A program made the position numbers and the translations under genes. A stretch of 62,110 bases of DNA, filler included, from Actinomycetota bacterium (GTDB lineage: Bacteria; Actinomycetota; Acidimicrobiia; IMCC26256; VFJJ01): assembly GCA_009886115.1 (NCBI GenBank). It is 4 parts of 4 records of this genome, joined end to end, with 100 filler letters (N's around TTAATTAATTAA, not from the genome) between each part and the next. Parts side by side here need not be neighbours in the genome. Positions count along the whole stretch, not along the records: positions 35,492 to 62,110 come from VFJJ01000125.1; 3 more parts are not named here. One strand, 5' to 3'. Every line of letters starts with the position of its first letter. Positions within the stretch are counted from its first letter, which is position 1. The notes beneath the pieces were generated by a model. The model was not told the origin of the DNA. It saw nothing but the letters and a program-made list of their open reading frames with translations, and did not search any database. Below are positions 35,592 to 62,010 of this stretch, piece after piece.

Positions 35592-35638
35592 TCGGACTTC
35601 TCATCCGAAGGTCGCAGGTTCGAATCCTGCCGGGGGCG
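35592..35638 (+). repeat. tRNA-Arg(UCU) 3'-half fragment (att-like scar)
   Basis: TCGGA-CTTCTCA-TCCGA anticodon arm, AGGTC, GCAGG-TTCGAAT-CCTGC, CGGGGGC-G; 5' half absent. Confidence 0.85.
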
Positions 35639-36026
35639 CGTGGTGTTCTTCCGGGCGCGTCGGCGAGCCTCGTGGTTGCGCCAGGTGATGAGCGAGAGCT
35701 CGCGTTCGGCGCGGCGTTCCTCTCGCTCGAAGCGCTCGCGTTGCTGCATGGACTCGACGGCGGCGACGAGTGATCGTTGTGCCGACTCGGCATCGCGCTC
35801 GGCCTGCGCAGCGACGACGGCGAGCCGCTCCAGCCAACGCGTGCGGGCGTACGTCGAATCTTCGTGCAGCGCCGCGTCGGCGAGCTTCTTGACCGCGGCA
35901 TCCACGTACGACCGTCGTCAGACGGTTGCGCTGGCGCAATCGGCAAGTCTGTGCGGCTCATTTCAAAGGATTCGGAGGGCACGGCGTTGAGGTGCGTCGC
36001 GGCGTTCGGGTGCGGGTCGGACGTGA

Positions 36027-36237
36027 TCATGCATGCTCGCGATCGGCGCGCAGGGGATCGGCGGGGATCGGGCCGAGAAGCTGCTCGAGCTGGTGGCGCG
36101 CGATGACGACCCGTCGGCCCAGCGTGAGCGACGGGATCTCGCCCCGCCGCACGCACTCGTAGGCGCTCGTAGGCGCTCGTGCGGCAGATCCCGAGGAGCC
36201 GGGCGGCCTCGGGAACGGTGAAGGTGAGCCTGGACAC
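36027..36237 (-). pseudogene. Excisionase-family HTH gene frameshifted by a 10-bp duplication
   Basis: SRLTFTVPEAARLLGICRTSAYE continues as CVRRGEIPSLTLGRRVVI in another frame; CTCGTAGGCG x2 at 36156-36175; GGAGG RBS. Confidence 0.85.
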
Positions 36238-36407: not shown

Positions 36408-36492
36408 GGTCGTGGTGATCGAGGTGTTCACCGGGTGGGCGGTCCGCGCTCGTCGCGGGTGGTCTGTGGCAGCTGGGCGGCCACGGTTCAAG

Positions 36493-36897
36493 ATGATGAA
36501 GACTCGCGTCATGCGATTCACGTTCACGATCGACAGCACGGATCCCGGTCGCCTGGCGACCTTCTGGGCCGCGGCACTCGGCTACACCGCGGTCGGCGAG
36601 TTCGGCGTCTTCTGGCCGCTGTTCCCGGCGGACGCGAGCGAGCCGGCGTTCAACATCCAGCGTGTCGGCGATGCGAAGGTCGGCAAGAACCGGATGCACC
36701 TCGACGTCCACGTCGATGACCTGGAGGCAGAGGTGGCGCGCCTGGTATCGCTCGGCGCCTCGACCATGAGTGCGGCGGTGATCTGCGAGCACGAGCACCG
36801 GTGGTTCGTGATGGCCGATCCGGATGGCAACGAGTTCTGCGTCGTGCAGCGCCCGTCTGAGGTCGACGAGCTGGGTCGGCCGGTCGACGCCGCGTAG
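36493..36897 (+). CDS. VOC/glyoxalase family protein
   Basis: ID..DP..LA.FWAAALG, KNRMHLD, EVARLV.LGA, VMADPDGNEFCV. Confidence 0.92.
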   Translation: MMKTRVMRFTFTIDSTDPGRLATFWAAALGYTAVGEFGVFWPLFPADASEPAFNIQRVGDAKVGKNRMHLDVHVDDLEAEVARLVSLGASTMSAAVICEHEHRWFVMADPDGNEFCVVQRPSEVDELGRPVDAA

Positions 36898-37010: not shown

Positions 37011-39674
37011 GTGGAGATCCTGCCGACCGGCACCGTCACCTTCCTCTTTTCCGACATCGAGGGATCGACGCGTCGGTGGCAGGAGGACCCCGGGGCGATG
37101 CAGGCGGCGTTGTCCGAGCACGACGCGATCTGGCGGGACGTGATCGACGCGCGACATGGGTATCTGTTCAAGCACACCGGGGATGGCGTGGTGGCGGTGT
37201 TCCCTTCAGCGTCGGACGCGGTGAAGGCGTCGGTTGATGCGCAGACGCGCTTGGTCGACGTGTTGCCGGTGCGGATGGGCCTGCACACTGGCGAGGCCGA
37301 GTTGCGCGACGGGGACTACTTCGGGTCGACGTTGAACCGGTGCGCTCGCCTGATGGGTGTGGCCCATGGTGGGCAGGTCGTGTGCAGCGCAGCGACCGCC
37401 GAGTTGGTGCGCGATCGAGGCGATCTGCGCGATCTCGGTGAGCATCGGCTGCGCGATCTCAGCCGGGCGGAACGGGTGTGGCAGGTCGGCGGTGGTGATT
37501 TCGCGGCGTTGCGGTCGCTGAACAACCTGCCGACGAATCTGCGGCCGCAGCTGTCGAGCTTCGTGGGCCGTGAGGAAGCGGCGGTGGCACTGACCGAGGC
37601 GGTCGGTGCGGCGCGGCTGGTGACGTTGACCGGACCGGGTGGTGTGGGCAAGACGCGGCTTGCACTCCAGGTCGCCGCGGAGGTGCTGGCGCGTTTCGAG
37701 AACGGTGCCTGGCTGATCGAGCTGGCCCCGATCACCGATGGCGCGGCGTTGGCGGAGGCGGTGGCGGCGGCGTTGGGTGCGGTGCCGCAGCCCGGTCTGT
37801 CGTTCGCCGCGAGCGTGGTCGAGTTCGTCCGTTACAAGCAGATGTTGTTGGTCTTCGACAACTGCGAGCACGTGGTCGATGACGTGGCGGGGTTGATCGA
37901 GCAGATCCTGGCCGACGCGCCGCGCGTCCACGTGCTGGCCACGTCGCGTGAGGCGTTGGCGCTCGAGGGTGAGTCGATCCGGCCGGTTCGGCCGATGACG
38001 GTCGATGACGAGGCGTCCGAGGCGGTTCGTCTGTTCGTCGAGCGGGCCCGCGGCGCGCGTCCGGAGTTCGCGATCGACGACGCGAACCGGTCGAGTGTGC
38101 TGGACATCTGTCGGCGTCTCGACGGCGTGCCGCTGGCGATCGAGTTGGCGGCCGCCCGGTTGGGCGCGATGGGCCCGGCCGACATCGCGCAGCGACTCGA
38201 CGAGCGGTTCCGTCTGTTGGCGGCCGGCCGGCGGGCACGGGTGGAGCGGCACCAGACGCTGCGCGCCACCGTGGACTGGTCGTATCAGCTGCTCGACCCG
38301 GCGGAGCAGACCGTCTTCAACCGGCTCGCGGCGTTCAGCGGCGGTTGGACCGCCGACGCCGCGCAGGCGGTGATCTTCGACGACACGATCGACGAGTGGC
38401 AGGTGCTGGACTTGCTGACGCATCTGGTCGACAAGTCGATGGTCAATGCGACGCCGGACGACCAGGGCGGTGTGCGGTACTCGATGCTCGAGACGCTGCG
38501 GCAGTACGCGCAGGAACGGCTCGACGAGCGCGGCGAGGTCGACGAGTTGCGGGCCCGCCACGCCCGTCACGTCGCGGCGTGGCTGGCGCGGATCGAGCCG
38601 CTGCTGAAGAGCCGCGACGAGCCCGTGTGGCTGCCGCGGCTCGCGGCCGAGCGCGACAACATCGTTGCCGCGGTCGACTGGGCCCTCGGTGGAGATGATC
38701 TCGACACGGCGATCGCGATCGTCGCGGCGCTCGACTGGCACGCCTTCATGGTGCCCGGCCTGGGCCTGACAACGCTTCCCTTGGTGGTGACGAACAGCGA
38801 TCGATGTGAGGATCATCCCGCCTATGGCTCGGTGGCTGCCGCGGCTGCCCAGTCGCTCTGCGTCGCGGGACGCATGGCGGAAGCAATTGATCTCGCCGAG
38901 GGTCTGGTGCGGCAGGACCGATCGAACTGGCTGGCGTACTCCGCGTTGGCGTTCAGCTACAACCACACGAACCGAGGCGCCGACGCGCTGGCTGCTGCCG
39001 AACGCGTGGTCGACATCAGCCGAGTGGCTGACGATCCGTGGGTGCTCGCGAGCGCGCTCAGCACCCTCAGCACGGTCCGGGTCACGTATACGGCAGACCC
39101 GAGTGCCCGCGGGGAGGCAGCTGAGGCAGTCGCGCGTGCCGAGCGGATCGGGTGTCCGACGCTGTTGCACCTGGCCTACTTCACGCGTGGGTTCGTCGAG
39201 GAGTACTCCGATGCCGAGCAGGCAGTGCAATGGTGCCGCAAGGCGATTGACGTTCTCGAAGCGTCGTCCGCATCGGCGCTGCTAACCGGCAGCGCATACG
39301 CAACGATCTGTCTCGCGGCGGCCGAGCTCGGCGATCGCGACCTCTTGTTGACGTCGCTGCGCGACGCGGTGACCTTCACCCGCGCCTCGACGGTGTGGTT
39401 CGCGCTTTACCACGCGTGCGAATACGGCGGCCAGGCGCTGGTTCGGTTCGGGCATGTCGAGACCGCGGTCCGCCTGCTCGGCGCGGCCTCTACGCAACGC
39501 CCCCTCGGTGGCGCCGAGATCGAGAAGCGTGCCGAGGCGCTTGCCGAGGCTCGCGCACTCCTCGCGGAAGCGGCCTACGAAGCGGCCTTCCACTTCGCCG
39601 ACGGCATGAACCCCGACGAACTGGCGGCGTACGTGCTGGCCGAGGTCGAACGCCTGGAGCGCGGCGATGCCTGA
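37011..39674 (+). CDS. Class III cyclase-STAND(NB-ARC)-helical repeat protein, copy A
   Basis: FSDIEGST, KHTGDG, RMGLHTG, DYFG..LNRCAR; GPGGVGKT, DNCEH, ATSRE, DGVPLAIELAA. Confidence 0.92.
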   Translation: MEILPTGTVTFLFSDIEGSTRRWQEDPGAMQAALSEHDAIWRDVIDARHGYLFKHTGDGVVAVFPSASDAVKASVDAQTRLVDVLPVRMGLHTGEAELRDGDYFGSTLNRCARLMGVAHGGQVVCSAATAELVRDRGDLRDLGEHRLRDLSRAERVWQVGGGDFAALRSLNNLPTNLRPQLSSFVGREEAAVALTEAVGAARLVTLTGPGGVGKTRLALQVAAEVLARFENGAWLIELAPITDGAALAEAVAAALGAVPQPGLSFAASVVEFVRYKQMLLVFDNCEHVVDDVAGLIEQILADAPRVHVLATSREALALEGESIRPVRPMTVDDEASEAVRLFVERARGARPEFAIDDANRSSVLDICRRLDGVPLAIELAAARLGAMGPADIAQRLDERFRLLAAGRRARVERHQTLRATVDWSYQLLDPAEQTVFNRLAAFSGGWTADAAQAVIFDDTIDEWQVLDLLTHLVDKSMVNATPDDQGGVRYSMLETLRQYAQERLDERGEVDELRARHARHVAAWLARIEPLLKSRDEPVWLPRLAAERDNIVAAVDWALGGDDLDTAIAIVAALDWHAFMVPGLGLTTLPLVVTNSDRCEDHPAYGSVAAAAAQSLCVAGRMAEAIDLAEGLVRQDRSNWLAYSALAFSYNHTNRGADALAAAERVVDISRVADDPWVLASALSTLSTVRVTYTADPSARGEAAEAVARAERIGCPTLLHLAYFTRGFVEEYSDAEQAVQWCRKAIDVLEASSASALLTGSAYATICLAAAELGDRDLLLTSLRDAVTFTRASTVWFALYHACEYGGQALVRFGHVETAVRLLGAASTQRPLGGAEIEKRAEALAEARALLAEAAYEAAFHFADGMNPDELAAYVLAEVERLERGDA

Positions 39675-42327
39675 GGAGACCGCCCGAGTGCAGAACACGC
39701 CGACCGGCACGGTGACGTTCTTGTTCACCGACATCGAGGGTTCGACGCGGTTGTGGGAGGAGCGACCCGAGGAGATGCGTGCCGCGCTGGCGGAGCATGA
39801 TGCGATCGTGCGGGGCGCGATCGATGCGCACGATGGGTATGTGTTCTCGACGGGTGGTGACGGGTTCGCGGTGGCGTTCTCGCGGGCGGGGGACGCGGTC
39901 GATGCGGCGGTACGGGCGCAGGCGGCGCTGGCGGGGCATCGGTTGATCCGGGTGCGGATGGGGTTGCACACGGGGGAGGTGCACGAGCGCGGCGGGGACT
40001 ACTTCGGTCCGGCGGTGAACCGTGCCGCACGCCTGATGGCGATCGGTCACGGCGGGCAGGTGCTGGCGTCTGCGGTCACCGCGGCGTTGCTCGACGCTGC
40101 GGTACCGACGCGTGATCTGGGTGAGCATCGGTTGCGGGATCTCTCGGCGCCGCAGCGGGTGTTGCAGCTGGGTGACGGTTCGTTCCCGGCGTTGCGGTCG
40201 GTGGATGTGGTGCCGTCGAACTTGCCGGTGGTGTTGACCGAGTTGGTGGGCCGCGGTGACGACATCGCCGAGTTGTCGCAGCTGGTACGCCGCGACCGGA
40301 TCGTGACGCTGACCGGCACGGGTGGGGTGGGCAAGACCCGGCTGGCGCTCGGTGTCGCGGCGGCGGTCGCGGCCGAGTTCTCGGATGGCGTGTGGTTGGC
40401 CGAGTTGGCGCCGGTCGCCGACTCGGCCCGGATCGACCAAGCGGTCGCCGCCGCGTTGGGGGTCGGTGTTGCCGTGGACGGCCGCGCGGGTCTGGTCAGC
40501 TACTTGCAGGCCCGACGACTGGTGTTGGTGCTGGACAACTGTGAGCAGGTTCTCGACTCGGCCGCTGAGTTCGTCAGCGCCGTGGTCTCGGCGGCGCCCG
40601 AGGTGCATGTGATCGTGACGTCGCGTGAACCTCTGGGGGTCGACGGCGAGGTGGTGCGGCGCGTGCGATCCCTCGGGTTGCCCGACGATGCCGATGACCC
40701 GTCCGCCATCGACGGGTCGGATGCCGTTCGGATGTTCGTCGAGCGCGCCGGCGCGGCGAGTGGCGACTTCCAGCTCAACGCCGGCAACCGCGCCGCCGTG
40801 GCGGAGGTCTGCCGCCGCCTCGATGGGATTCCCTTGGCGATCGAGCTTGCCGCGGCCCGCGCGCGCGCCATGACCCCGGCGCAGATCGCGGCGAGGCTCG
40901 ACGAGCGGTTCCGGTTGTTGTCGGGCGCGCGCCGGACACAGGAACGACACCGCACCCTGCAGGCCGCGGTGTCGTGGTCGTATGACTTGTTGTCGCCCGA
41001 GGAGCAACGGGTGTTCTGGCGGCTGTCGATCCTCCCGTCGAGCTTTGATACGGCCGCTGCGGACGCGGTGGCCGGTGACGACGCCGACGTGCTCGATGAT
41101 CTGCTGCGATTGGTGGATCGGTCGTTGGTGCAGCACGACCCGATCACCGGCCGCTACCGGTTGTTGGAGACGTTGCGGCAGTTCGGCGCCGACCGCGCGG
41201 TCGAGGCGGGCGAGGCCGACGAGATCCGTGGCCGCTACGTCGACCACTTCCGAGGAGTCGTGGCGACCAACGGTCCGCGCTACGAAGCTCCCGAGTCCTT
41301 CTCCGCCGCCGAAGAAGCACTGAGCGTCGAGCTCGACAACATCACGGCGGTTGCGGGGCTGCTCGTCGACGACCAGGCGTGGCGTCAACTGCACGACCTC
41401 TGCCTGAGCATGGCGGCGTTCATGAACAACTACGCCCCGGCGAGCTTCGCCCGGTGGCTCGGCGCGGCCACTGATGCCGGCGCGTGCGTCGATGACCAAG
41501 AGCGAATCGACGCGCTCGGCTGGGTCGCGTACGGCCTTTTCAATTCGGGCGGCCTCGATACGGCGGCCGGTCGCGCCACCGAGAGCCTCGCGCTCGCCGC
41601 GCGACGCGACGGCGATCCGAGCCCGTGGGCGTTGTGGACACTCGGCACCCTCGCACAGGTGGCGGGCCGGTGGGCCGACTGCCTCGCCCACTTCGATGCA
41701 GCTGTCAACGCCACGGCCCATCGCGCTTGCTATACACAGTTGCTCATCCGGGCCACGTGGCTCCAGGGATTCCTGCTCGATCGAGGCTTCGATGGGAACG
41801 AGCCGGTGATCGAAGAGGTGCTGCGGGAGACGAGCGAACACCCCGTCACCTCCGTCATCGCAGCGCTGGCCGTCGCGATGCCGCTGGCCGTCGCGGGCGA
41901 CGCCGAGCGAGGTCGGCGGTATCTGGAGGCGGTATCCGAGCAGTCCATCGCCAACCCGGTGCTGCGCGGGTGGTTCAGCATGGCGAAGGCGATGGCGTTG
42001 ATCGACGCCGCACCACATGCAGCCGTCGGCTACGCCATCGAGGCGGTGCATTCGAGCGACCGTGCCGGGAACGCGTATTCGAAACACGGCGCAACGCTCA
42101 CGCTGGCCGTGCTCGCCGGCCGCATCGGTCGAGTCGACCTCGCGGCCCGGCTCCATGCGCACACCGAGGCGTTTCCGGACTTCCATGGAGCTCACGGGTA
42201 TGTGTGGCTGCTCGTCGACATCGACGCCGCGCTCGTCGCGGCCGGCATGCCAACGCCGGTGACCCCCCAGGAGCTCACCCGGCAGGAACTGTTCGCGATC
42301 ATCGCCGAGTTGGAGGCCGAATCATGA
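39667..42327 (+). CDS. Cyclase-STAND-helical repeat protein, copy B
   Basis: FTDIEGST, STGGDG, VNRAAR; GTGGVGKT, DNCEQ, GIPLAIELAA. Confidence 0.92.
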   Translation: MPEETARVQNTPTGTVTFLFTDIEGSTRLWEERPEEMRAALAEHDAIVRGAIDAHDGYVFSTGGDGFAVAFSRAGDAVDAAVRAQAALAGHRLIRVRMGLHTGEVHERGGDYFGPAVNRAARLMAIGHGGQVLASAVTAALLDAAVPTRDLGEHRLRDLSAPQRVLQLGDGSFPALRSVDVVPSNLPVVLTELVGRGDDIAELSQLVRRDRIVTLTGTGGVGKTRLALGVAAAVAAEFSDGVWLAELAPVADSARIDQAVAAALGVGVAVDGRAGLVSYLQARRLVLVLDNCEQVLDSAAEFVSAVVSAAPEVHVIVTSREPLGVDGEVVRRVRSLGLPDDADDPSAIDGSDAVRMFVERAGAASGDFQLNAGNRAAVAEVCRRLDGIPLAIELAAARARAMTPAQIAARLDERFRLLSGARRTQERHRTLQAAVSWSYDLLSPEEQRVFWRLSILPSSFDTAAADAVAGDDADVLDDLLRLVDRSLVQHDPITGRYRLLETLRQFGADRAVEAGEADEIRGRYVDHFRGVVATNGPRYEAPESFSAAEEALSVELDNITAVAGLLVDDQAWRQLHDLCLSMAAFMNNYAPASFARWLGAATDAGACVDDQERIDALGWVAYGLFNSGGLDTAAGRATESLALAARRDGDPSPWALWTLGTLAQVAGRWADCLAHFDAAVNATAHRACYTQLLIRATWLQGFLLDRGFDGNEPVIEEVLRETSEHPVTSVIAALAVAMPLAVAGDAERGRRYLEAVSEQSIANPVLRGWFSMAKAMALIDAAPHAAVGYAIEAVHSSDRAGNAYSKHGATLTLAVLAGRIGRVDLAARLHAHTEAFPDFHGAHGYVWLLVDIDAALVAAGMPTPVTPQELTRQELFAIIAELEAES

Positions 42328-44969: not shown

Positions 44970-45043
44970 CCGATCGCCGGTCGCCGGTCGCCCATGGTTG
45001 ATCGACCCGAGCACGTGTCCCCTGGTCGTGGCAGGCTTCTCGA

Positions 45044-50376: not shown

Positions 50377-50461
50377 CCCCGCACCTCGATCATGGCGTCC
50401 GGACCAGAGGTACCGACTGGTTCACGAGCAGAGCGTCCGGTGGCCGTGGGAGGCTTGTCGG

Positions 50462-53173
50462 ATGGAGAGCCCGCCGACCGGCACGGTGACGTTCTTGTTC
50501 TCGGACATCGAGGGTTCGACGCGTCGGTGGCAGGACGAGCCGGACGCGATGCGGGCGTTGCTCACCGAGCACGACGCGATCTGGCGTGAGGTGATCGAGA
50601 AGCACCGGGGTCATCTGTTCAAGCACACCGGTGATGGCGTGGCGGCGGTGTTCGCGTCGGCGGCTGATGCGTGTGCGGCTGCGGTGGATGCTCAGGCGCG
50701 GCTGGCCGGCGTGTTGCCGGTGCGGGTGGGGTTGCACACCGGTGAGGCGGAGTTGCGCGACGGGGACTACTTCGGCTCCACGTTGAACCGGTGCGCGCGC
50801 CTGATGGGGATCGCGCACGGTGGCCAGATCGTGTGTAGCGCGGCCACAGCCGAGCTGGTGCGCGACCGCGACGATCTGCGCGACCTGGGCGAGCATCGCC
50901 TGCGGGACTTGAGTCGTGGGGAGCGGGTGTGGCAGGTCGGCGCGGGTGAGTTCCCGGCGTTGCGGTCGTTGACCGCAGCGTCGACGAACCTGCCGTTCCT
51001 GTTGTCGTCGTTCGTGGGCCGTGAGGCGGAGATGGCCGAGCTCGTGGCGGCGGTGGGTGAGTCGCGTCTGGTGACCTTGACCGGGGTGGGTGGCGTCGGG
51101 AAGACGCGTTTGGCGTTGCAGGTCGCGGGGGAGGTCTTGCCCGGGTTCGTGGATGGCGTGTGGCTGGCCGAGCTAGCGGCGGCGGCGAACGGTGACGAGA
51201 TGGTGCAGGTGGTGGCCTTGGCGTTGGGGGTGGTGCAGCGCCAGCAGATGACGTTGGCGGAGTCGATCGTCGACTTCCTGCGGACCCGCGAGATGTTGGT
51301 GGTGTTGGACAATTGCGAACACCTGCTCGACGACACGAGCGAGCTGGTCGAGGACGTGTTGGCGGGCGCGCCAAAGGTCCGGGTCCTGGCGACGAGTCGT
51401 GAAGGGTTCGGGATCCCGGGCGAGGCCGTGCGGCCGCTGCGCTCACTCGCGGCGACTGAGCAAGACGCGGAGTCGAGCGACGCGGTGGTCCTGTTCGTCG
51501 AGCGGGCCCGGGCCGTGAAGCCCGGCATCGTGCTCGACACAGATGCGGTGTCGATCGTGGTCGAGTTGTGCCGGCGATTGGACGGGATACCGCTGGCGAT
51601 CGAGCTCGCGGCGGCGCGGGTCGCCACGATGACCCCGGCCGAGATCGTCGGACATCTCGACGAACGCTTTCGGCTGTTGACCGGGGGGCGCCGGGGTCGG
51701 GTGGAGCGGCACCAGACGTTGCGTGCGGCGATCGAGTGGTCGTACTCGTTGCTCGAGGAGACCGAGCGAGCAGTGTTCGACCGGCTCGGGGTGTTCCCGG
51801 CGAGCTTCGACGAGGCCGCCGCAGTGGCGGTGTGTGCCGGCGACGGAGTCGAGCGGTGGGATGTGATCGACGCGATGGCCGGCTTGGCGACCAAGTCGAT
51901 GGTCAACACCGAACAACATGGAGACGTGACGCGCTATCAGTTGCTCGAGACGCTGCGGCACTTCTCCCGTGACCGCGCCGACGACCTCGATGAGTTGCGG
52001 CGACGCCACGCCCGCCATTTCGCCGGCGTGGCGGAGGCGTTCTCGTCCGGGCTCAGGAGCCCGGACGAGTTCGCGTGGCGGCCACGGCTCGTCGCCGAAC
52101 TCGACAACCTGCGCGCCGCTGCGGGATGGGCGTTCGACGCTGCTGGCCTCGACGACGTCGGGTTCGGCGTTCGCATCATCGACGCGCTGCTGCACGAAGC
52201 CGGGGACCGGCTGTCGTGGGGGATCCAGGCCTGGGCCGCGCCGGGTTTGGCGCGCGTGGATGATCTCGAGGCCGCCCAGCGGGCCACGCTGTTCACCGCC
52301 GCGAGCCAGGCCGAGTTCCTCCTCGGCGATCTCGAGCGGGCCCGACAGCTTGCGGCGCGCGCCCTTGCGGACACGCCGATCCTCTCCAACGCACACGACA
52401 TCGCAATCATCTGGCTCTGCATCGGGGAGGCCGCGCTCGGCGACCCGGCCGCGGCGATGGACTTCTTGGCCGAGGCTCGCGCGCTGGTGGAATCCGACCC
52501 GACGAGCAACAAGTGGCGGGCTGCGGGACTTCCCATCCTCGTCTCCACCATCGCGCTCATGGCCGGCGACCACGACACCGCACGGTCACAGGCCCGGCTG
52601 AGCGTCTCAAGAAATCGAGCACTGTCCAACCCGTCCATGCTGGCCCACGCGCTCGTGAACGAGGGACACGTGCTCTGCACGCAGAGTCCCACCGAGGCGC
52701 TCGCCTTGCTCGATGAGGCCATGCCCCTTCTCGAGGCCGGCTTGGTCGATTCGGTGTATTCCGGGGCGTTGCTGGATGTTGCCTTCCTGCGAGCGCCCGC
52801 CGATCTCGCCCGTGCGGCGCGTGCCGCGAGCACCGCGATCGGCGTGCTGGCCCGTACCGGCAATCGAAGCAACATCGCCGACGCGATCGCCATGGCGGCG
52901 TTCGTGACCGCGGCCCACCCCGCCTACCGGGAAGTGGCCGTCACCCTCGATGGGGCCCGCCGCGGACCGTTGCTCGGCCACATCCCGGCCCTTTTCACCA
53001 CCCCCTACCAGCCCCGCCTCGATGCCACCAGCGAAGACGTCGTGGCGGGCCTGGACCCCGCGATCGTCGGGGCCGCGCAACGGCGGGGAGCCGCGATGAC
53101 CTACGACGAGGTCACCGCGTATGCGCTCGAGCAACTTGCCCGGATCGCCGTCGAGTCCGAGGCTTCGGTATGA
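50462..53173 (+). CDS. Cyclase-STAND-helical repeat protein, copy F
   Basis: KHTGDG, LNRCAR; GVGGVGKT; start set by alignment to paralogs. Confidence 0.92.
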   Translation: MESPPTGTVTFLFSDIEGSTRRWQDEPDAMRALLTEHDAIWREVIEKHRGHLFKHTGDGVAAVFASAADACAAAVDAQARLAGVLPVRVGLHTGEAELRDGDYFGSTLNRCARLMGIAHGGQIVCSAATAELVRDRDDLRDLGEHRLRDLSRGERVWQVGAGEFPALRSLTAASTNLPFLLSSFVGREAEMAELVAAVGESRLVTLTGVGGVGKTRLALQVAGEVLPGFVDGVWLAELAAAANGDEMVQVVALALGVVQRQQMTLAESIVDFLRTREMLVVLDNCEHLLDDTSELVEDVLAGAPKVRVLATSREGFGIPGEAVRPLRSLAATEQDAESSDAVVLFVERARAVKPGIVLDTDAVSIVVELCRRLDGIPLAIELAAARVATMTPAEIVGHLDERFRLLTGGRRGRVERHQTLRAAIEWSYSLLEETERAVFDRLGVFPASFDEAAAVAVCAGDGVERWDVIDAMAGLATKSMVNTEQHGDVTRYQLLETLRHFSRDRADDLDELRRRHARHFAGVAEAFSSGLRSPDEFAWRPRLVAELDNLRAAAGWAFDAAGLDDVGFGVRIIDALLHEAGDRLSWGIQAWAAPGLARVDDLEAAQRATLFTAASQAEFLLGDLERARQLAARALADTPILSNAHDIAIIWLCIGEAALGDPAAAMDFLAEARALVESDPTSNKWRAAGLPILVSTIALMAGDHDTARSQARLSVSRNRALSNPSMLAHALVNEGHVLCTQSPTEALALLDEAMPLLEAGLVDSVYSGALLDVAFLRAPADLARAARAASTAIGVLARTGNRSNIADAIAMAAFVTAAHPAYREVAVTLDGARRGPLLGHIPALFTTPYQPRLDATSEDVVAGLDPAIVGAAQRRGAAMTYDEVTAYALEQLARIAVESEASV

Positions 53174-55812: not shown

Positions 55813-58517
55813 TGGCGATTCCTTCCGGCACGGTGACGTTCCTGTTCTCGGACATCGAGGGTTCGACGCGTCGGTGGCAGGACGAGCCGGAGGCGATGCG
55901 GGCGTGGCTGGTGGAGCACGATGCGATCTGGCGTGAGGTGATCGAGAAGCACCGGGGTCATTTGTTCAAGCACACGGGTGACGGCGTCGCGGCGGTGTTC
56001 TCGTCGGCGTCTGATGCGGTGGACGCGGCGGTCGACGCAAAGGCGCGGTTGGCCGAGGTGTTGCCGGTGCGGATGGGGTTGCACACCGGTGAAGCCGAGT
56101 TGCGCGACGGAGACTATTTCGGGTCGACGTTGAACCGGTGCGCGCGCCTGATGGGGATCGCGCACGGCGGCCAAGTGGTCTGCAGCGCGGCGACGGTCGA
56201 GTTGGTGCGTGATCGCGATGATCTGCGCGATCTGGGTGAGCATCGTCTCCGGGACTTGAGTCGTGCGGAGCGGGTGTGGCAGATCGGCGGCGGCGAGTTC
56301 CCGGCGTTGCGTTCGTTGACCGCGGCGTCGACGAACCTGCCGTCATTGGGGAACGCGTTCATAGGTCGGGTGGCCGAGCTCGACGCGGTTGCGAAGGAGT
56401 TGTCCGAGGCGCGGCTCGTGACCTTGACCGGGGTCGGCGGGGTGGGCAAGACCCGGTTGGCGATGCAGGTTGCGGCCGAGGCGCTGCCTCGCTTCGTCGA
56501 CGGGGTGTGGTTGTGCGAGCTCGCCGCGGCGGCGAACGCCGACGAGATGATGCCCGTGGTGGCCTTGGCGTTGGGCGTGGTGCAGCGCCCACAGATGACG
56601 CTGACCGAGTCGATCGTCGACTTCCTGCGCCCCCGGCAGACCCTCATCGTGTTGGACAACTGCGAGCACCTGCTCGACGCGGCGGCCGAATTGGTCGAGG
56701 ACGTGCTCGCCGGCGCACCGGGTGTGCGGGTGTTGGCCACGAGCCGCGAGGGCTTCGGGATCGCGGACGAGCGCGTGCGCCCGCTGCGGTCGCTGGCGAT
56801 CGCGGCCGAGCACACCGAGACGAGCGACGCGGTCGTGCTCTTCGTGGAGCGGGCACGCGCGGTCAACCCCGACTTCACGCTCGATGCCGCGTCGGCACCC
56901 GTCGTCGCCGATCTGTGCCGGCGGCTCGACGGGATCCCGCTGGCGATCGAGCTGGCGGCCGCGCGTGTGACCGCGATGAGCCCGGCCGAGATGGTGTCGC
57001 ACCTCGACGAGCGGTTCCGGCTGTTGACGGGCGGGCGACGGGGCCGCGTCGAGCGGCATCAGACCCTGCGCGCCGCCGTCGAGTGGTCGTATTCCTTGCT
57101 CGGTGAGGTCGAGCGCTCCGTCTTCGACTGCATTGGTGTGTTCCCCTCGAGTTTCGACGAGGCTGCGGCGGTCGCGGTGTGTGCCGACGATGGCGTCGAG
57201 CGCTGGGATGTGATCGACGCACTGGCCGCGTTGGTGGCGAAGTCGATGATCGGCACCGAACGCGACAGCGGCACGACCCGTTATCAGCTGCTCGAGACGC
57301 TTCGGCACTTCGCACGCGATCGCGCGCACGACCTCGACGCGCTGCGCCGCCGCCACGCCACCTACTACGCCACGTTCGCCGAGCAGCTCGGGGCAGGTTT
57401 GCGCACGCCCGATGAGCTCGTGTGGCGTCCCCGGCTCGGGGTCGAGATCGACAACCTGCGCGCGGCGACGGCCTGGGCGTTCGACGCCGCGACGCTCGAG
57501 GAGGTTGTGATCGGTGCGCGCATCGTCGACGCACTCGTCTACGACGGTGGTACGGCAAGTGCGTCGTTTGGGATCCAGCGGTGGGCGGCTCCCGTGTTGG
57601 ACCGTGTCGACGGGTTCGAACCCCGGCATCGGGCAGCGCTGTGTGCCGCGGCCGGCGTCGAGGCGTTCCAGGCGGGCGACATCGAGGGCGGCCGGGCGCT
57701 CGCTCGCCGGGCGATCGCCGATTCGGTCAGCCTGACTCCGGCGTGCGCGGCCGCCGTGGCGTGGCTGGCGGGTTGGGAGGCCGTCCTCGGCAACGATGCC
57801 GCGTTGGCGGCGGTTCTGGCCGACGCCCATCGGTTGTTGGATGCGGTCGATGTGGGACGGGATTATTGGGCCGCCGCGCTGGCGACTGTCGAGGCGTTGG
57901 CCCCGGGCCTGGCCGGCACGTTCGATGGTGCCGTGGCCGAGAATGCGGTGGCGTTGGCCCGGCGATCGGGAGTTCCGAACCTGCTCTTCTCGGCCCTCGG
58001 AGCCTTGGGACGGGTGAACTTCAACGCCGACCCTGACGTTGCCCTGGCTGCGTACGACGAGGCGAGCGCGCTCTTCGATGCCGGCGCCGCGTCCGGGCTC
58101 TTCACGATGATGCAGCAAGACACGGCAGTGCTGCGGGCCGCGACCGGAGACCACATCGGGGCGGCCCGCGCCGCGCGCGCCGCCATCGAGCACGGGGCCC
58201 GCAACGGTGACCGCATCAACGTGGTCGACACGCTTGCGATCGCCTCGTTCGTGGCGGCGGTTCGACGTGATCTCGCGGTTTCGGCGACGCTCGTCGGGGC
58301 CCGCAACGGCCCCGCGCTCGGCGCGATCCGGCCCGGGTCGGTCTCGATCCACGTCCCCCTCATCGAGGCGGCGCTGGCGCGGGTGGCCGCCGAACTCGCC
58401 ACCGTCGCCTATGCGGCCGCGTACCAGCGCGGTGGGGCGATGAGCTACGACGAGATCGTCGCGTACGCGCTCGAGGAGCTCGGGCGGATGGCGTCCGAGC
58501 CCGCGTCCAGGGGATGA
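55812..58517 (+). CDS. Cyclase-STAND-helical repeat protein, copy H
   Basis: GTG 55809 or ATG 55812 overlapping the copy G stop; KHTGDG; GVGGVGKT. Confidence 0.92.
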   Translation: MAIPSGTVTFLFSDIEGSTRRWQDEPEAMRAWLVEHDAIWREVIEKHRGHLFKHTGDGVAAVFSSASDAVDAAVDAKARLAEVLPVRMGLHTGEAELRDGDYFGSTLNRCARLMGIAHGGQVVCSAATVELVRDRDDLRDLGEHRLRDLSRAERVWQIGGGEFPALRSLTAASTNLPSLGNAFIGRVAELDAVAKELSEARLVTLTGVGGVGKTRLAMQVAAEALPRFVDGVWLCELAAAANADEMMPVVALALGVVQRPQMTLTESIVDFLRPRQTLIVLDNCEHLLDAAAELVEDVLAGAPGVRVLATSREGFGIADERVRPLRSLAIAAEHTETSDAVVLFVERARAVNPDFTLDAASAPVVADLCRRLDGIPLAIELAAARVTAMSPAEMVSHLDERFRLLTGGRRGRVERHQTLRAAVEWSYSLLGEVERSVFDCIGVFPSSFDEAAAVAVCADDGVERWDVIDALAALVAKSMIGTERDSGTTRYQLLETLRHFARDRAHDLDALRRRHATYYATFAEQLGAGLRTPDELVWRPRLGVEIDNLRAATAWAFDAATLEEVVIGARIVDALVYDGGTASASFGIQRWAAPVLDRVDGFEPRHRAALCAAAGVEAFQAGDIEGGRALARRAIADSVSLTPACAAAVAWLAGWEAVLGNDAALAAVLADAHRLLDAVDVGRDYWAAALATVEALAPGLAGTFDGAVAENAVALARRSGVPNLLFSALGALGRVNFNADPDVALAAYDEASALFDAGAASGLFTMMQQDTAVLRAATGDHIGAARAARAAIEHGARNGDRINVVDTLAIASFVAAVRRDLAVSATLVGARNGPALGAIRPGSVSIHVPLIEAALARVAAELATVAYAAAYQRGGAMSYDEIVAYALEELGRMASEPASRG

Positions 58518-58521
58518 CCCG

Positions 58522-61221
58522 GTGAAGAGCACTGCCACCGGCGCCGTGACGTTCCTGTTCTCGGACATCGAGGGTTCGACGCGTCGGTGGCAGGACGAGC
58601 CGGAGGCGATGCGGGCGTTGCTCACCGAGCACGACGCGATCTGGCGCGACGTGATCGACAAGCACCGGGGTCACTTGTTCAAGCACACCGGTGATGGCGT
58701 GGCGGCGGTGTTCGGGTCGGCTGCTGATGGGTGCGCGGCGGCGCTGGATGCACAGGCGCGGCTCTGTGACGTGTTGCCGGTGCGGGTGGGGTTGCACACC
58801 GGTGAGGCCGAGCTGCGCGACGGGGACTACTTCGGGTCGACGTTGAACCGGTGCGCGCGCCTGATGGGGATCGCGCACGGTGGCCAGGTGGTGGCCTCAG
58901 AGGCGACCGCGGCGTTGGTGCGCGACCGCGACGATCTCAAAGATCTGGGTGAGCATCGTCTCCGGGACCTGAGTCGGGCCGAGCGGGTGTGGCAGGTCGG
59001 TGCGGGGGAGTTCCCGGCGTTGCGTTCGTTGACCGCGGCGGCCACGAACCTGCCGTCGTCGGGGAACGCGTTCGTTGGTCGCGTGGCGGAGATGGACACG
59101 GTCGCGAGGGCGCTGGCCGATGCTCGGTTGGTGACCCTGACCGGGGTCGGCGGGGTCGGCAAGACACGCTTGGCGTTGCAGGTCGCGGCCGAGGTGTTGC
59201 CACGCTTCGCGGATGGCGCGTGGCTGTGCGAGCTTGCCGCGGCGTCGAACGGCGATGACATGGTGCAGGTCGTCGCGCGGGCGTTGGGCGTCGTGCCGCG
59301 GCCGCAGATGACGCTGACCGAGTCGGTCGTCGACTTCGTGCGCGCCCGTGAGCTCCTCATCGTGTTGGACAACTGCGAGCACCTCCTCGACGACGCTGCC
59401 GTGTTGGTGGAGGACGTGCTGGCGGGGGCACCGAGGGTGCGGATCCTGGCGACGAGCCGCGAGGGCTTCGGGCTCCCCGACGAACAGGTGCGGCCGGTGC
59501 GGTCGTTGGCGGTGTCGAGCGAGCACCCCGAGACGAGTGACGCGGTGGTGTTGTTCGTCGAGCGGGCGCGCGCGGTCAAACCTGACCTGGTGCTCGACTC
59601 GTCGTCGATGCCGGTGGTGGTCGAGTTGTGCCGGCGGCTCGACGGGATCCCGCTGGCAATCGAGCTCGCTGCGGCGCGGGTCGCGACGATGACCCCGGCC
59701 GAGATCGTGGGGCATCTCGACGAGCGATTCCGCTTGTTGACGGGCGGCCGCCGGGGCCGCGTCGAGCGCCATCAGACGTTGCGCGCCGCCGTCGAGTGGT
59801 CGTATTCGTTGCTCGACGACACGGAACGTGCCGTGTTCGATCGGCTCGGGGTCTTTCCGTCGAGCTTCGACGAGGCCGCCGCGGTCGCCGTCTGCGTGGG
59901 CGAGGGGATCGAACGGTGGGACGTGATCGACGCGCTCGCGAGCCTGGCCGCGAAGTCGATGATCGGCGCGGAGCAGTCCGAGAGCTCGACGCGCCATCAG
60001 CTCCTCGAGACGCTGCGCCACTTCGCGCGTGACCGCGCCGGCGATCTCGACGAGCTGCGCCGCCGCCACGCGGTGCACTTCGCGGCCTTCGCCGAGCGAG
60101 CCGGGGTAGGACTGGCCAGCCCCGACGAGCTCGCGTGGAAGCAGCGGCTGGCCGTCGAGATCGAGAACCTTCGGGCCGCGGTCGACTGGAGCGTCGATGC
60201 ACGGCCACTCGCGGACCTGAACCTGGGCGTCGGGATCATCGAAGCATTGCTGGGCGAGGCGGTCACGACGATGGCGTGGGGAATCCACTCGTGGGCGTTA
60301 CCGGTGCTGCTTCGAGCCGGCGAGCTCGATGGACCGCACAGTGCGACCATCTCGGCGGCGTCGAGCATGCACTTCTTCAACCAGGGCGACATCGCACAAG
60401 GCCGTGATCTCGGCCGGCGTGCCGTTGCCGATTCGGCGGCGTTCACGAACGCGTACTTCGCCGCGATGATCTACTCGGCCCTGGCGGACGTGCTCCTCGG
60501 CGAGCCGGTCGCCGCCGTGGCGACGATCGCCGCCGGGCAACGCCTGCTGATGTCGGAGACTGATCCGGCCGAGTGGCAGCGGTGCCGGATGCAGATCGCC
60601 GCCGCCTCGATCCACGGGTTCCTGGGTGACCACGCAGCCGCGCGGGCCGCGGCTGCGGAGGCCGTGGTCGAGGCTCGCCGATCACGCCTGCCGTCGTTCC
60701 TGGCCGGCGCCCTGACGGTGTACGGGCATTACCAGTGCGAGGTGGATCCGCAGGAAGCCGATCGGTCGTTGGGCGAGGCGATCGGGTTGTTCGAGTCGCT
60801 CGGCGGTGGCTCGATCTTCCCCGGCGCGCTGATGGACATGGCCGTTCTGCGCGCCGCCGAGGGGGACGTTTCTCGCGCCGCCGACCTGGCACGGACGTCG
60901 GTCGAGCAGTTCGTCCGCGACGGGTACCGACAGGACCTGGTCGACGCCTTGTCGGCGGCGACGACCGTGTTCGCCGCGCATCGTGACGGCGCGGACGCGG
61001 CCGCCACGGTCGACGGCGCGCGCCGCGGACCGGTCCTCGGACAGCTGATGAGCGGGTACGCCGCGCCGCATCGATCGCGCATCGAGGCCGTACAGGAGCG
61101 TGTGGCCGCTGAACTCGGCCCTGACGCGTACGAGGCGGCTCGACAGCGGGGCGCCGCGATGACCTACGACGAGATCGTCGCGTACACGCTCGACCAACTC
61201 GCGCGGATCGCCGACTCGTAG
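58522..61221 (+). CDS. Cyclase-STAND-helical repeat protein, copy I
   Basis: KHTGDG, LNRCAR; GVGGVGKT. Confidence 0.92.
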   Translation: MKSTATGAVTFLFSDIEGSTRRWQDEPEAMRALLTEHDAIWRDVIDKHRGHLFKHTGDGVAAVFGSAADGCAAALDAQARLCDVLPVRVGLHTGEAELRDGDYFGSTLNRCARLMGIAHGGQVVASEATAALVRDRDDLKDLGEHRLRDLSRAERVWQVGAGEFPALRSLTAAATNLPSSGNAFVGRVAEMDTVARALADARLVTLTGVGGVGKTRLALQVAAEVLPRFADGAWLCELAAASNGDDMVQVVARALGVVPRPQMTLTESVVDFVRARELLIVLDNCEHLLDDAAVLVEDVLAGAPRVRILATSREGFGLPDEQVRPVRSLAVSSEHPETSDAVVLFVERARAVKPDLVLDSSSMPVVVELCRRLDGIPLAIELAAARVATMTPAEIVGHLDERFRLLTGGRRGRVERHQTLRAAVEWSYSLLDDTERAVFDRLGVFPSSFDEAAAVAVCVGEGIERWDVIDALASLAAKSMIGAEQSESSTRHQLLETLRHFARDRAGDLDELRRRHAVHFAAFAERAGVGLASPDELAWKQRLAVEIENLRAAVDWSVDARPLADLNLGVGIIEALLGEAVTTMAWGIHSWALPVLLRAGELDGPHSATISAASSMHFFNQGDIAQGRDLGRRAVADSAAFTNAYFAAMIYSALADVLLGEPVAAVATIAAGQRLLMSETDPAEWQRCRMQIAAASIHGFLGDHAAARAAAAEAVVEARRSRLPSFLAGALTVYGHYQCEVDPQEADRSLGEAIGLFESLGGGSIFPGALMDMAVLRAAEGDVSRAADLARTSVEQFVRDGYRQDLVDALSAATTVFAAHRDGADAAATVDGARRGPVLGQLMSGYAAPHRSRIEAVQERVAAELGPDAYEAARQRGAAMTYDEIVAYTLDQLARIADS

Positions 61222-61231: not shown

Positions 61232-61630
61232 TCACGCCGACTGGCTGCGGGCGCGGAGCGCGGCGACGTCGAGGAGGAGGAGGAGGAGGAGGAGGAGGAT
61301 GTGCTTGCCGTCGACGTCGATCCAGCCGAGCAGGCGCAGGGCGCGGAAGGCCTTGACGACCGCTTCGCGCGACTGGCCCGACCAGCCCGCGAGGTCGTTC
61401 TGGGTGACGGGCGTGCGGAGCGCGACGGTTCCGTCGGGCCGTAGCGGCCCGCCATGTCGAGGAGTCGGGCGCACACCCGGCCGATCGCGTCGTTGGTGCC
61501 GAACTCGAGTTGGCGCGACGAACTGCCCCGCAGGCGTTCCGCGAGGAGCCGCATCAACAGGGTGGCCACGCCGGGGTGATCGTCGACGAACGCGAGGAAC
61601 GCGGCGTGCGGGACGATCAGCGCGGTGAAC
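61232..61630 (-). pseudogene. Crp/Fnr-family regulator, C-terminal half, frameshifted
   Basis: F..FVDDHP.VA..LMRLLAERLR...D..GRVCARLL, shift near 61440, then TQNDLAGWSG.SREAVVKA...LR..GWI. Confidence 0.85.
61271..61297 (+). repeat. (GAG)9 microsatellite (poly-Leu in the Crp relic)
   Basis: Seen directly. Confidence 0.95.
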
Positions 61631-62010
61631 GGGATCAGGTATCCGGCGGCAGGGCTGTTGATGTTCTTCGCCGCGTACGTGCGCTGCCCCATCTTGAGGT
61701 ACATGGGCAGAGCAGGTGTGGCTCGCAGCAGCCGAACAGCATGCGCCGATCGGGCGCCGAGGTGAACATGTCGGTGCCGCTGAACATGAGGAGTCCGTCG
61801 AGCACCCCCGAGCCTCGGTGTGCCGGCCGCACCGAGTTCCGCTCACCGACCGCCATCATCGACGCGGGGATCTCGGCGAGGAACGGCCCGAGTTGGTACT
61901 GGTCGATCGGGCGCCGGGAGAACCCGTCACCACCCCAGGTGATGCGCGTGGCCGCGCCGACTTGGTCGCCGTCGCGCGCGAATTAGATCCAGCTGTGCTC
62001 GTCCTCGGCC
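61631..62010 (-). pseudogene. GNAT-fold (FeeM-like acyltransferase) relic
   Basis: EDEHSWI*FARDGDQVGAATRITWGGDG...E...VRPAHRGSGV...GCCEPHL / YLKMG; in-frame TAA at 61983-61985 and a shift near 61705. Confidence 0.55.

Follow-up and report, generated by a model that had tools for sequence, protein, structure and literature searches.

What a tandem array of nine paralogous genes, each encoding a nucleotide cyclase domain, a STAND-type ATPase and a helical-repeat C-terminus, does for an uncultured member of the Acidimicrobiia (Actinomycetota) is the question raised by this locus. Our analysis suggests that the array is probably a bank of ligand-gated STAND-type nucleotide cyclases that feeds cAMP signalling. 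The window (the whole stretch of DNA analysed, 62,110 nucleotides) consists of four contigs joined by N linkers of the form N44-TTAATTAATTAA-N44 at positions 7035-7134, 28443-28542 and 35392-35491, and the real context of the array is restricted to positions 35492-62110, a contig of 26619 nt.

The nine genes, named here C1 to C9 in their order, are intact and co-oriented on the + strand, encode proteins of 880-903 aa and fill positions 37011-61221, as the preliminary description had it. Distances between consecutive genes are -8, -4, +74, -4, +85, -4, -1 and +4 nt, and the claim that most stop and start codons overlap holds for five of the eight junctions. This arrangement predicts three translationally coupled blocks. 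C1 (37011-39674, 887 aa) heads the first block, in which C2 (39667-42327, 886 aa) overlaps C1 by 8 nt and C3 (42324-44969, 881 aa) overlaps C2 by an ATGA. The second block is headed by C4 (45044-47689, 881 aa), with an ATGA overlap to C5 (47686-50376, 896 aa). The third block consists of C6 at its head (50462-53173, 903 aa), C7 (53170-55812, 880 aa), C8 (55812-58517, 901 aa), which overlaps C7 by 1 nt, and C9 (58522-61221, 899 aa), the last gene of the array. A Shine-Dalgarno-like GGAGG within the last codons of the preceding gene recurs along the array, and the 5' leader and first codons of C4 resemble those of C1. A scan for promoters and terminators was uninformative (0 promoters; 11 terminator-like sites compared with 7.8 +/- 2.7 expected).

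The contig opens with a tRNA-Arg (TCT) gene on the + strand (35565-35639), 74 nt inside its start. It is followed on the - strand by the remnant of an excisionase-type HTH_17 gene (around 36075-36222), which is split over two reading frames that match profile positions 2-21 (E 0.0037) and 15-47 (E 0.0015), both under the curated cut-off. An intact glyoxalase/VOC-family gene (36412-36897, + strand, Glyoxalase_6 E 9.7e-28) lies directly upstream of C1. These three features are given as context only. Convergent with the array, a Crp/Fnr-family gene (around 61232-61704, - strand) is also divided between two frames, one with HTH_Crp_2 at about 61289-61429 and the other with the preceding helix region, as read from the translations. 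This gene possibly encodes a cNMP receptor, and a Pfam profile search of it gave no cNMP_binding match. For both split genes, a frameshift is indistinguishable from a sequencing error in a metagenome assembly. The genes flanking the array had been described as broken, which stands for the excisionase-type and Crp-family genes, but the glyoxalase-like gene is intact and profile searches near the array found no GNAT gene. Tad pilus genes, an HTH_17 gene at 27374-27610 (the xis at 27.4 kb) and an Mrr endonuclease and an AAA_16 ATPase in a low-GC piece were considered as context of the array and rejected, being on other contigs. Since the xis gene and the low-GC Mrr region lie there, they give no evidence of an island around the array.

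The presence of an N-terminal class III cyclase in each gene, as noted earlier, is confirmed by matches to Guanylate_cyc (PF00211) in all nine copies at 32.3-59.0 bits (cut-off 21.9). In C6 the domain occupies residues 1-160, and Foldseek comparison of its AlphaFold2 model reveals close matches to Ma1120 (TMt 0.86-0.89, rmsd 1.9-3.1) and Rv1900c (TMt 0.90). Residue positions were taken from alignment to the GRESAG4 and Ma1120 motifs. The Asp pair D15/D58 (C6 numbering), metal-binding in class III cyclases, the transition-state residues N109 and R113, and Arg88 are invariant in the nine copies. Across a family alignment of 79 members the Asp pair, Arg88 and Arg113 are present in all 79, Asn109 in 78 and Asp102 in 76. 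Judged from these residues, which are intact in all nine cyclases, activity is likely. The adenine-specifying Lys-Asp pair divides the copies into two types. Asp102 is present in all of them, while Lys54 is found in six (C1 and C5 to C9; motif FKHTGDG in C1) and is replaced by Ser in C2, C3 and C4 (FSTGGDG in C2). The Lys54 position is occupied by K in 41, S in 31 and A in 7 of the 79 family members. The six K-type copies should make cAMP, whereas the three S-type copies may have relaxed or different nucleotide specificity.

Following the cyclase, an NB-ARC match is present in all nine copies, six at or above the cut-off of 23.5 bits and three just below it (21.7-22.9). The P-loop GxGGVGKT (GPGGVGKT at residue 208 in C1) and the Walker B motif hhhhDNCE are intact in every copy, and all 79 family members keep the P-loop Lys and the Walker B residues. 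The conserved STAND ATPase described for each gene is thus supported. In the C6 model (pLDDT 93.0, pTM 0.84) the nucleotide-binding oligomerization module (NOD) is formed by NBD, HD1 and WHD (residues ~188-505) and is followed by helical hairpins (residues 509-902). The best structural match of the whole model is the STAND-TPR protein PH0952 (6mfv; E 3.2e-13, TMt 0.56, 758 columns), and Apaf-1 (3.6e-10), CED-4, ZAR1 and NRC are also matched, at E 1e-8 to 4e-10. The MHD-type His-Asp latch is absent from the winged helix, where RYRFHDLVR of AfsR aligns with RYRLLETLR; R[YH]xxLE occurs in all nine copies, and the latch-position Glu (L-L-E) in 79 of 79 relatives.

The C-terminal region is Ala-rich and strongly diverged, as had been observed, with 19-25% Ala and 23% mean pairwise identity among the copies. 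In protein-atlas features the C-termini of C6 and C2 are nearest to TPR clusters (0.97 and 0.96), and the clearest, though sub-threshold, TPR_2/TPR_12 signal is in C3. Pfam and the C6 model with its Foldseek matches agree on the proposed architecture of cyclase, NB-ARC STAND and helical-repeat sensor. The C-termini fall into several classes. C2, C4 and C7 carry a C-terminus of group B, for which hhalign detects no profile similarity to the C-termini of other copies, and C8 and C9 carry one of group C. The NOD is likewise of group B in C4 and of group C in C8 and C9. The TPR-like C-terminus of C1 is unlike the others in the array and yet homologous to those of C6, C8 and C9 (hhalign 98%, E 1e-13), and in C5 the NOD and the C-terminus are each unlike the others. 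A cryptic DNA-binding domain, a prospect raised in the preliminary description, was sought in whole proteins and C-termini. No GerE/LuxR or other HTH was found in any of the nine whole proteins (E<=0.01) or in their last ~450 aa alone (E<=1), searching the PDB with a model of the final 115 aa (pLDDT 94) gave nothing at E<=0.001, and a SARP (Trans_reg_C plus BTAD) is absent from all nine N-termini. The earlier remark that no LuxR HTH is visible and that the cyclase is the only evident output therefore stands on Pfam scans and the C-terminal model search alike.

Among known systems, the mycobacterial Mclx proteins (Rv0386, Rv1358 and Rv2488c) resemble the array proteins in having a class III cyclase homology domain at the N-terminus and a STAND-type ATPase after it. 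However, the Mclx proteins end in a LuxR HTH which the nine copies lack, leaving the cyclase as their sole recognisable output. The likeness to Rv0386-type proteins pointed out earlier agrees with passages of PMC4452763, where Rv0386 is given as an active cyclase and the biochemistry is credited to Castro 2005. AfsR-like large SARPs of the Actinomycetota (SARP, NB-ARC NOD and TPR) are the nearest solved and the nearest sequence relatives of the NOD-TPR module. Sequence searches reached no solved STAND other than AfsR (profile search, E 3.2e-14 and 4e-10); a single-sequence PDB search with the NOD-TPR part gave no match. A SARP stands instead of, or ahead of, the cyclase in proteins 38-46% identical to the NOD-TPR part over ~720 aa. 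Among 23 NOD-TPR matches chosen for their differing N-terminal lengths, six are SARP-NOD, four SARP-cyclase-NOD and one HTH_3-NOD, and a SARP is present in 13. In AfsR, according to PMC10936776, the effector is inhibited by the NOD and TPR until ATP binds; this effector is the DNA-binding SARP domain, in contrast to the cyclase of the array proteins. The F/Y-HD activation latch is stated in part of 10.64898/2026.09.02.748808 to be conserved in 3853 AfsR-like proteins. All nine array copies have L-L-E in its place, so the switch may work otherwise than in AfsR. PH0952/MalT-type STANDs follow the same NOD-plus-TPR sensor logic, but PH0952 and MalT have no cyclase, and sequence identity is only 14%.

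By analogy with MalT, PH0952, AfsR, Apaf-1 and plant NLRs, we infer that ligand binding to the TPR part would release the ATPase switch and that ATP-bound protomers would oligomerise. The active sites of class III cyclases form only across a dimer interface. Because of this requirement, oligomerisation could switch on cNMP synthesis by bringing the cyclase domains together. The signal would most likely be read by general cNMP receptors, for example the product of the adjoining Crp-family gene, rather than by a dedicated effector. The AfsR-type NOD-TPR switch would then drive enzymatic as well as transcriptional outputs.

Sequence divergence among the copies increases along the protein, mean pairwise identity dropping from 71% (cyclase) through 57% (NB-ARC) and 49% (winged helix) to 23% (C-terminus). 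Within close groups dN/dS is 0.13-0.30 for the cyclase and 0.17-0.24 for the NOD, and is raised to 0.44-0.60, still below 1, for the C-terminus. Every domain is under purifying selection. The copies are old, dS between them being 0.3-1.0 (within close groups, 0.33-0.41 for the cyclase as against 0.44-0.82 for the NOD). C7 is a chimera of a K-type cyclase and a group B remainder: its cyclase is 88-92% identical to those of C5, C6 and C8 and its NOD 80-87% identical to those of C2 and C4, with the crossover near aligned nt 480-540. Trees reflect this, since C1 and C5 to C9 group together in the cyclase tree (support 0.997) while C7 groups with C2 and C4 in the NOD tree (1.0). C3, the most divergent copy, stands apart from the others in the joint tree and is placed with group B, though weakly, by the NOD tree. 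A joint tree of cyclase and NOD, with eight of the nine copies in one clade (0.95), would have suggested a lineage-specific burst, which the separate trees reject: the common ancestor of the copies spans 56 of 75 sequences in the NOD tree and all 75 in the cyclase tree. Only the triplets C2/C4/C7 and C6/C8/C9 are firm close groups. The array probably originated from old tandem duplications (C2/C4/C7 and C6/C8/C9), from older paralog lineages brought together and from exchange between domains.

It might be argued that short-read metagenome assembly joined paralogs that are dispersed in the genome, producing the array or at least some feature of it, for instance the gene order or the C7 chimera. 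The contig is only 26.6 kb long and comes from a linker-joined set, and some copies have exact strings in common, up to 101 nt between C2 and C4 and 73 nt between C8 and C9. However, no 300 nt stretch is more than 92% identical between copies (a difference of 8% or more), and junction overlaps of 1-8 nt and the GGAGG sites recur. The crossover in C7 is also located away from the longest exact strings that C7 has in common with its sliding-window comparison partners, namely with C8 (52 nt, gene position 45), C5 (53 nt, position 46), C4 (39 nt, position 1208) and C2 (48 nt, position 1478). Other lineages also have tandem arrays of this family, on independent long contigs of 0.4 and 1.3 Mb (L012 and L047), and an artefact is scarcely credible. 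A different objection is that the cyclase is no output but serves to bind nucleotides or to dimerise, a role suggested for Rv1358 and Rv2488c, with signalling via protein-protein contacts. Parts of PMC4452763 discuss Mclx2 and Mclx3, in which some canonical cyclase residues are missing, as regulators, and three of the nine copies lack the substrate-specifying Lys, at a position that varies within the family. Nevertheless, none of the nine copies departs from the metal-binding and transition-state residues, which 76-79 of 79 relatives also have, conservation is highest in the cyclase (dN/dS 0.13-0.30), and no other output domain was found, which makes this reading very improbable.

The main alternative to a bank of signalling cyclases is an immune repertoire, in which NLR-like receptors with diversified TPR sensors would bind phage or competitor molecules and raise a cNMP alarm leading to growth arrest or to a distant effector. 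Class III-like cyclases are used in defence by Pycsar, and the array proteins would be Pycsar-like with sensor and cyclase fused. Pycsar pairs its cyclase gene with a gene for a cNMP-binding effector, whereas the contig of the array has no such gene. Antiphage STAND and NLR-like proteins (Avs and bNACHT) have the same tripartite make-up of effector, STAND ATPase and repeat sensor, although the array NOD is NB-ARC/AfsR-like and not of NACHT or Avs type. The sensor is the most diverged part with raised dN/dS, the group B C-termini have no detectable likeness to the rest, and the tandem arrays L012 and L047 show the same identity gradient (71-82% in the N-part, 45-57% in the C-part). The C-terminal divergence, the expansion in tandem and the division of the cyclases into K and S types are compatible with a conflict system as well. 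The array is adjoined by a tRNA gene and an excisionase-like remnant, and part of 10.1101/2022.07.19.500537 counts cNMP cyclases among the effector domains at the N-termini of bacterial NACHT proteins, as part of PMC7159879 does for other conflict systems. On the other hand, none of the nine proteins had a significant PADLOC 2.0 match, nor any match to Avs (C3, C4 and C9 had no match at all; the weak matches, to PycC with best E 6.4e-05, mad8 and TRIP13, were at E 6.4e-05 to 9e-03 and 13-20 bits). Neither a conserved partner nor a conserved cNMP effector was found among the 109 nearest neighbours of relatives at 53 loci, which include one cNMP-binding protein and three toxin-antitoxin or mobile genes, most others with a Pfam match being metabolic. 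The family is single-copy at 62 of 76 loci, with at least five copies at two (L012 and L047), and transcription regulators are its nearest relatives with a different effector. The copies diverged long ago and evolve under purifying selection, the array GC of 69-72% is similar to that of contigs 1 and 2, and a term search of the main text of a 2026 survey of antiphage STAND receptors (PMC12803255) does not return 'cyclase'. We therefore do not uphold the earlier proposal of an NLR-cluster-like repertoire that senses phages or competitors, given the lack of a PADLOC match and of a conserved partner, the SARP/AfsR kinship, the C-terminal dN/dS below 1 and the age of the copies, and we regard an immune role as rather unlikely. 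If it were true, bacterial NLR-like immunity would gain a branch that emits cNMP. A more elaborate form, in which each TPR sensor would bind its own molecule, either foreign (from phage or competitor) or derived from self, Lys and Ser cyclases would emit two cNMPs as a two-channel, sensor-fused counterpart of Pycsar, and shuffling as in C7 would make new sensor-output pairs, is quite improbable.

The array offers nine natural variants in one operon-like stretch; among them are both cyclase types, two or more sensor classes and a natural chimera. It is therefore convenient for asking what the sensors bind, whether a class III cyclase is gated by oligomerisation and whether the Lys/Ser switch alters the nucleotide product. 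A literature search found no experimental paper on the HTH-less cyclase-STAND-TPR family, while a 2004 survey of actinobacterial cyclases (PMC2447327), whose full text contains 'NB-ARC' 14 times and 'BTAD' twice, may already describe these architectures. The family is very common: protein matches exceed 8000, reference genomes contain 618 loci, and the NOD-TPR module has 117752 representatives. Its annotation is generic only. In Actinomycetota and several other soil phyla, few multi-domain cyclases are as common as the cyclase-STAND-TPR proteins. PF00196 is listed by none of the 120 best relatives, and the best matches to the array proteins from outside are 67% identical and located on contigs of 5-6 kb.

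The interval 37011–61221 is filled by nine open reading frames on the + strand (C1 to C9 in array order), each encoding 880–903 amino acids, as the preliminary description had stated in reporting intact, co-oriented paralogs with mostly overlapping junctions. The intergenic gaps from C1 to C9 are −8, −4, +74, −4, +85, −4, −1 and +4 nt, five of the eight being negative, and this pattern suggests three tightly coupled blocks (C1–C3, C4–C5 and C6–C9). GGAGG is present inside the final codons (...ELEA...) of several array genes, shortly 5′ of the following start, and about 45 conserved nucleotides are common to the leaders of C1 and C4, with fewer shared by the leader of C6. GC3 is 0.83–0.90 in all nine genes. 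Identity between copies is at most 92% over 300 nt and the longest exact string common to copies is 101 nt, so that collapse or duplication of copies by the assembler is unlikely; the gene order given here is that of the assembly.

Pfam analysis places a Guanylate_cyc domain above cut-off in all nine proteins (residues ~5–150), together with an NB-ARC match (residues ~190–430) that is at or above cut-off in six and 0.6–1.8 bits below it in three. NCBIfam matches were all partial and below cut-off (the cyclase part of LipJ, FxSxx_TPR and AfsR). A separate scan of the C-terminal ~450 residues (E ≤ 1) gave weak TPR matches in six of the nine copies and no HTH in any. The AlphaFold2 model of C6, built from a 79-sequence alignment (pLDDT 93.0, pTM 0.84), agrees with the proposed cyclase and STAND ATPase architecture: an α/β cyclase (residues 1–160) is followed by a linker, then by an α/β nucleotide-binding domain, a helical domain and a winged helix reaching to about residue 505, while residues 509–902 form helical hairpins. 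Foldseek comparison of this model with the PDB retrieved the archaeal STAND-TPR protein PH0952 (6mfv; E 3.2e-13, 758 columns, TMt 0.56), Apaf-1 (E 3.6e-10), ZAR1, NRC and CED-4 (E ~1e-8) and, for the cyclase, Ma1120 (TMt 0.86–0.89, rmsd ~2 Å). The last 115 residues, modelled separately with pLDDT 94.0, retrieved nothing from the PDB at E ≤ 0.001 (best E 3.6). Domain scans and structure search thus found no cryptic DNA-binding domain in the C-terminus, and the cyclase stands as the only visible output, as had been claimed from the lack of a LuxR HTH.

Alignment to GRESAG4.1/4.3, Ma1120 and Rv1900c locates the Asp of FxDIEGST, the Lys and Asp of K..GDG, RxGxHxG and DYFGxxxNxxxR, the roles of which we take to be those of class III cyclases in general. 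D15, D58, R88 and R113 are conserved in all 79 family members, as are the P-loop Lys and the DN.E Walker B motif, while N109 is present in 78 and D102 in 76. The substrate-specifying position (Lys54 of C6) is variable, being K in 41, S in 31 and A in 7 of these 79 sequences, and K in 54, N in 9 and S in 6 of a second set of 75, which also contains other residues. Within the array it is Lys in six copies and Ser in three (C2–C4; 39667–47689). This K/S/A split hints that nucleotide specificities may differ among the cyclases.

The copies have diverged very unevenly along their length. Mean pairwise identity is highest in the cyclase (71%) and drops through the NB-ARC part (57%) and the winged helix (49%) to 23% at the C-terminus, in keeping with the strong C-terminal divergence noted in the preliminary description. 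C6/C8/C9 and, from the NB-ARC-type STAND ATPase module (NOD) onwards, C2/C4/C7 form close-kin triplets, while C1, C3 and C5 fall outside both. C7 is chimeric, with a cyclase 88–92% identical to those of C5, C6 and C8 and a remainder 80–87% identical to C2 and C4; the switch point is at about aligned nucleotides 480–540. Within close groups, Nei-Gojobori estimates of dN/dS are 0.13–0.30 for the cyclase (dS 0.33–0.41), 0.17–0.24 for the NOD (dS 0.44–0.82), 0.14–0.32 for the winged helix and 0.44–0.60 for the C-terminus, ratios that are rough because dS is near saturation in a GC3-rich genome. These values indicate old duplications with purifying selection in every domain, the TPR-like C-terminus ("sensor") being the least constrained and the cyclase part homogenised or exchanged. 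In hhalign comparisons, the C6/C8/C9 C-termini show homology to the corresponding parts of C1 (98%, E 1e-13), C3 (94%) and C5 (81%), while those of C2/C4/C7 match no other copy (probability ≤7%, with shallow profiles). A protein language model scores both kinds as TPR-like (0.97 and 0.96).

The family itself is abundant in databases. A word-indexed protein search with C6 gave at least 8000 matches at E ≤ 1e-3; the best 120 of these are of equal length and, outside the window, 45–67% identical, carry only the generic names 'adenylate/guanylate cyclase domain-containing protein' or 'predicted ATPase/class 3 adenylate cyclase', and have PF00196 listed for none. A scan of species-representative genomes matched at least 623 stretches and confirmed at least 618 of them; 76 loci were retained. 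Judged by record titles, 58 of these belong to Actinomycetota, including 13 from Mycobacterium/Mycolicibacterium (some phylum assignments are our own), and the remainder to Chloroflexota (6), Eremiobacterota-like lineages (6), Armatimonadota (3), Verrucomicrobiota (2) and a gammaproteobacterial MAG (1). Multiple copies recur among relatives, but most loci (62 of 76) hold a single full family gene within ±10 kb; nine hold two, two hold three and one has a split copy only. The other two loci, L012 and L047, contain at least five each, both being cut by the locus end; their N-terminal parts are 71–82% and their C-terminal parts 45–57% identical, which indicates that tandem arrays with more diverged sensors recur. 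The nine copies described here form the largest array among the loci compared, with the most diverged sensors.

A joint cyclase and NOD tree (FastTree, 75 sequences) gathers all copies but C3 into one clade (support 0.95), C3 falling with a relative at locus L068 (0.94). The NOD tree does not recover the nine copies as a clade, their common ancestor subtending 56 of the 75 tips; C2/C4/C7 (1.0) and C6/C8/C9 (0.999) are retained, and C1 joins the latter along with outside sequences (0.89). The cyclase tree instead unites C1 with C5–C9 (0.997), and C2 with C4 (0.98), weakly joined by C3 (0.21). This disagreement contradicts a single recent burst and suggests that the array contains both local duplicates and paralog lineages of older origin, with exchange of cyclase modules.

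The NOD-TPR part of C6 (728 aa) matched 117752 cluster representatives at E ≤ 1e-3 and 57023 at E ≤ 1e-30; by our count, 58 of the best 150 matches start at residue 157–205, like the array genes. Among 23 matches chosen for other N-terminal lengths, six are AfsR-like (SARP and NOD), four carry SARP (BTAD, with or without Trans_reg_C), cyclase and NOD, one has HTH_3 and NOD, two have a cyclase with a longer N-terminus, four begin with ~95 residues without an assigned domain, three lack an N-terminal domain and three are giant multi-NOD proteins with BTAD. In the SARP-cyclase-NOD proteins (P0250, P0270, P0288 and P0332; ~1170–1200 aa), the SARP DNA-binding domain, cyclase, NOD and C-terminal part lie in one chain, and by domain content they are predicted to place two outputs on one switch. 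The giant predicted chains P0242 (3933 aa) and P0384 (2960 aa) contain 6–8 separate NOD-TPR matches, accompanied in P0242 by BTAD and WD40 propellers; these represent either multi-NOD fusions or tandem arrays that gene prediction failed to separate.

AfsR was the sole STAND protein detected in a sequence search of solved structures. One report describes its effector as inhibited by NOD and TPR until ATP binding relieves this (PMC10936776), and another describes an F/Y-HD latch in AfsR-like proteins (10.64898/2026.09.02.748808). Alignment of AfsR RYRFHDLVR with RYRLLETLR of the array proteins shows L-L-E at the position of this latch in all nine copies.

Taken together, the array most probably encodes a bank of paralogous sensors for ligand-gated cNMP (mainly cAMP) signalling, belonging to an AfsR-related STAND clade. 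The preliminary description had inferred a diversified, NLR-like sensor array converting many ligands, possibly phage or competitor molecules, into cNMP. Published lists of effectors include cNMP cyclases both for bacterial NACHT proteins (10.1101/2022.07.19.500537) and for other conflict systems (PMC7159879). The word 'cyclase' is absent from the main text of a 2026 survey of antiphage STAND receptors (PMC12803255). PADLOC returned only weak PycC, mad8 and TRIP13 matches (best E 6.4e-05), with none at all for C3, C4 and C9. The nearest genes on each side of family genes at 53 loci (109 of 236 called neighbours; six loci below 60% GC and loci shorter than 12 kb left out) include a single cNMP-binding domain, seven AMP-binding ligases (all in a single group of related loci), five members of a second cyclase-AAA_16 family and three toxin-antitoxin or resolvase genes; a further 38 lack a Pfam match, and the remainder have mostly metabolic or housekeeping roles. 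An immune receptor repertoire therefore appears unlikely, and no result here speaks for it directly. The second cyclase family, which often adjoins the cyclase-NB-ARC-TPR gene in mycobacterial-type loci (L006, L011, L016, L017 and L034), has ~1050–1100 residues, with a zinc ribbon (three of five) followed by cyclase and AAA_16.

The idea of a cyclase as the effector of a STAND protein has already been published, and the array is a large, well-preserved example of its family; what sets it apart and makes it useful is the K/S split of its cyclases, the natural chimera, the presence of two or more sensor classes and L-L-E in place of the HD latch. The body of a 2004 survey (PMC2447327) aside, our literature searches yielded no experimental study of HTH-less cyclase-NB-ARC-TPR proteins.

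Three artificial linkers (N44-TTAATTAATTAA-N44; 7035–7134, 28443–28542 and 35392–35491) mark the window as a composite of four contigs joined end to end, which restricts the true context of the array to the contig 35492–62110 (26619 nt); genes cut at linkers and synteny across them are artefacts. For the array proteins and for the GatB encoded in the window, the protein database records longest contigs of exactly 26619 and 21308 nt, the lengths of 35492–62110 and 7135–28442. Named relatives of this GatB, 72–74% identical to it, come from Acidimicrobiia MAGs. The Tad pilus genes, an HTH_17 at 27.4 kb and a low-GC Mrr/AAA_16 piece were rejected as array context, since they lie on other contigs, such as 7135–28442 (21308 nt). 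The broken flanks described earlier are partly borne out: an excisionase-type HTH_17 gene (~36075–36222, − strand; sub-threshold matches) and a Crp/Fnr-family gene (61232–61704, − strand) are each split over two frames, but no GNAT gene was found near the array. In the Crp-family gene, which is convergent with the last cyclase gene, the HTH and the helix before it read in different frames, and no cNMP-binding domain was detected upstream of the HTH; either the gene is a pseudogene or the break stems from the assembly. Shortly upstream of the array, a tRNA-Arg(TCT) (35565–35639, + strand) precedes the HTH_17 remnant, and the two may be what is left of a former integration event at the tRNA; an intact glyoxalase-like gene (36412–36897) is also present. 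The contig 28543–35391 (GC ~63%), separate from that of the array, carries an AAA_16/STAND-like ATPase (28823–30004, − strand) and an Mrr-type restriction endonuclease (30698–31642, + strand), and may represent a small island of defence or mobile genes. A PAS-PAS-GGDEF-EAL protein on another contig (186–2552, + strand) shows c-di-GMP signalling in the same bin.
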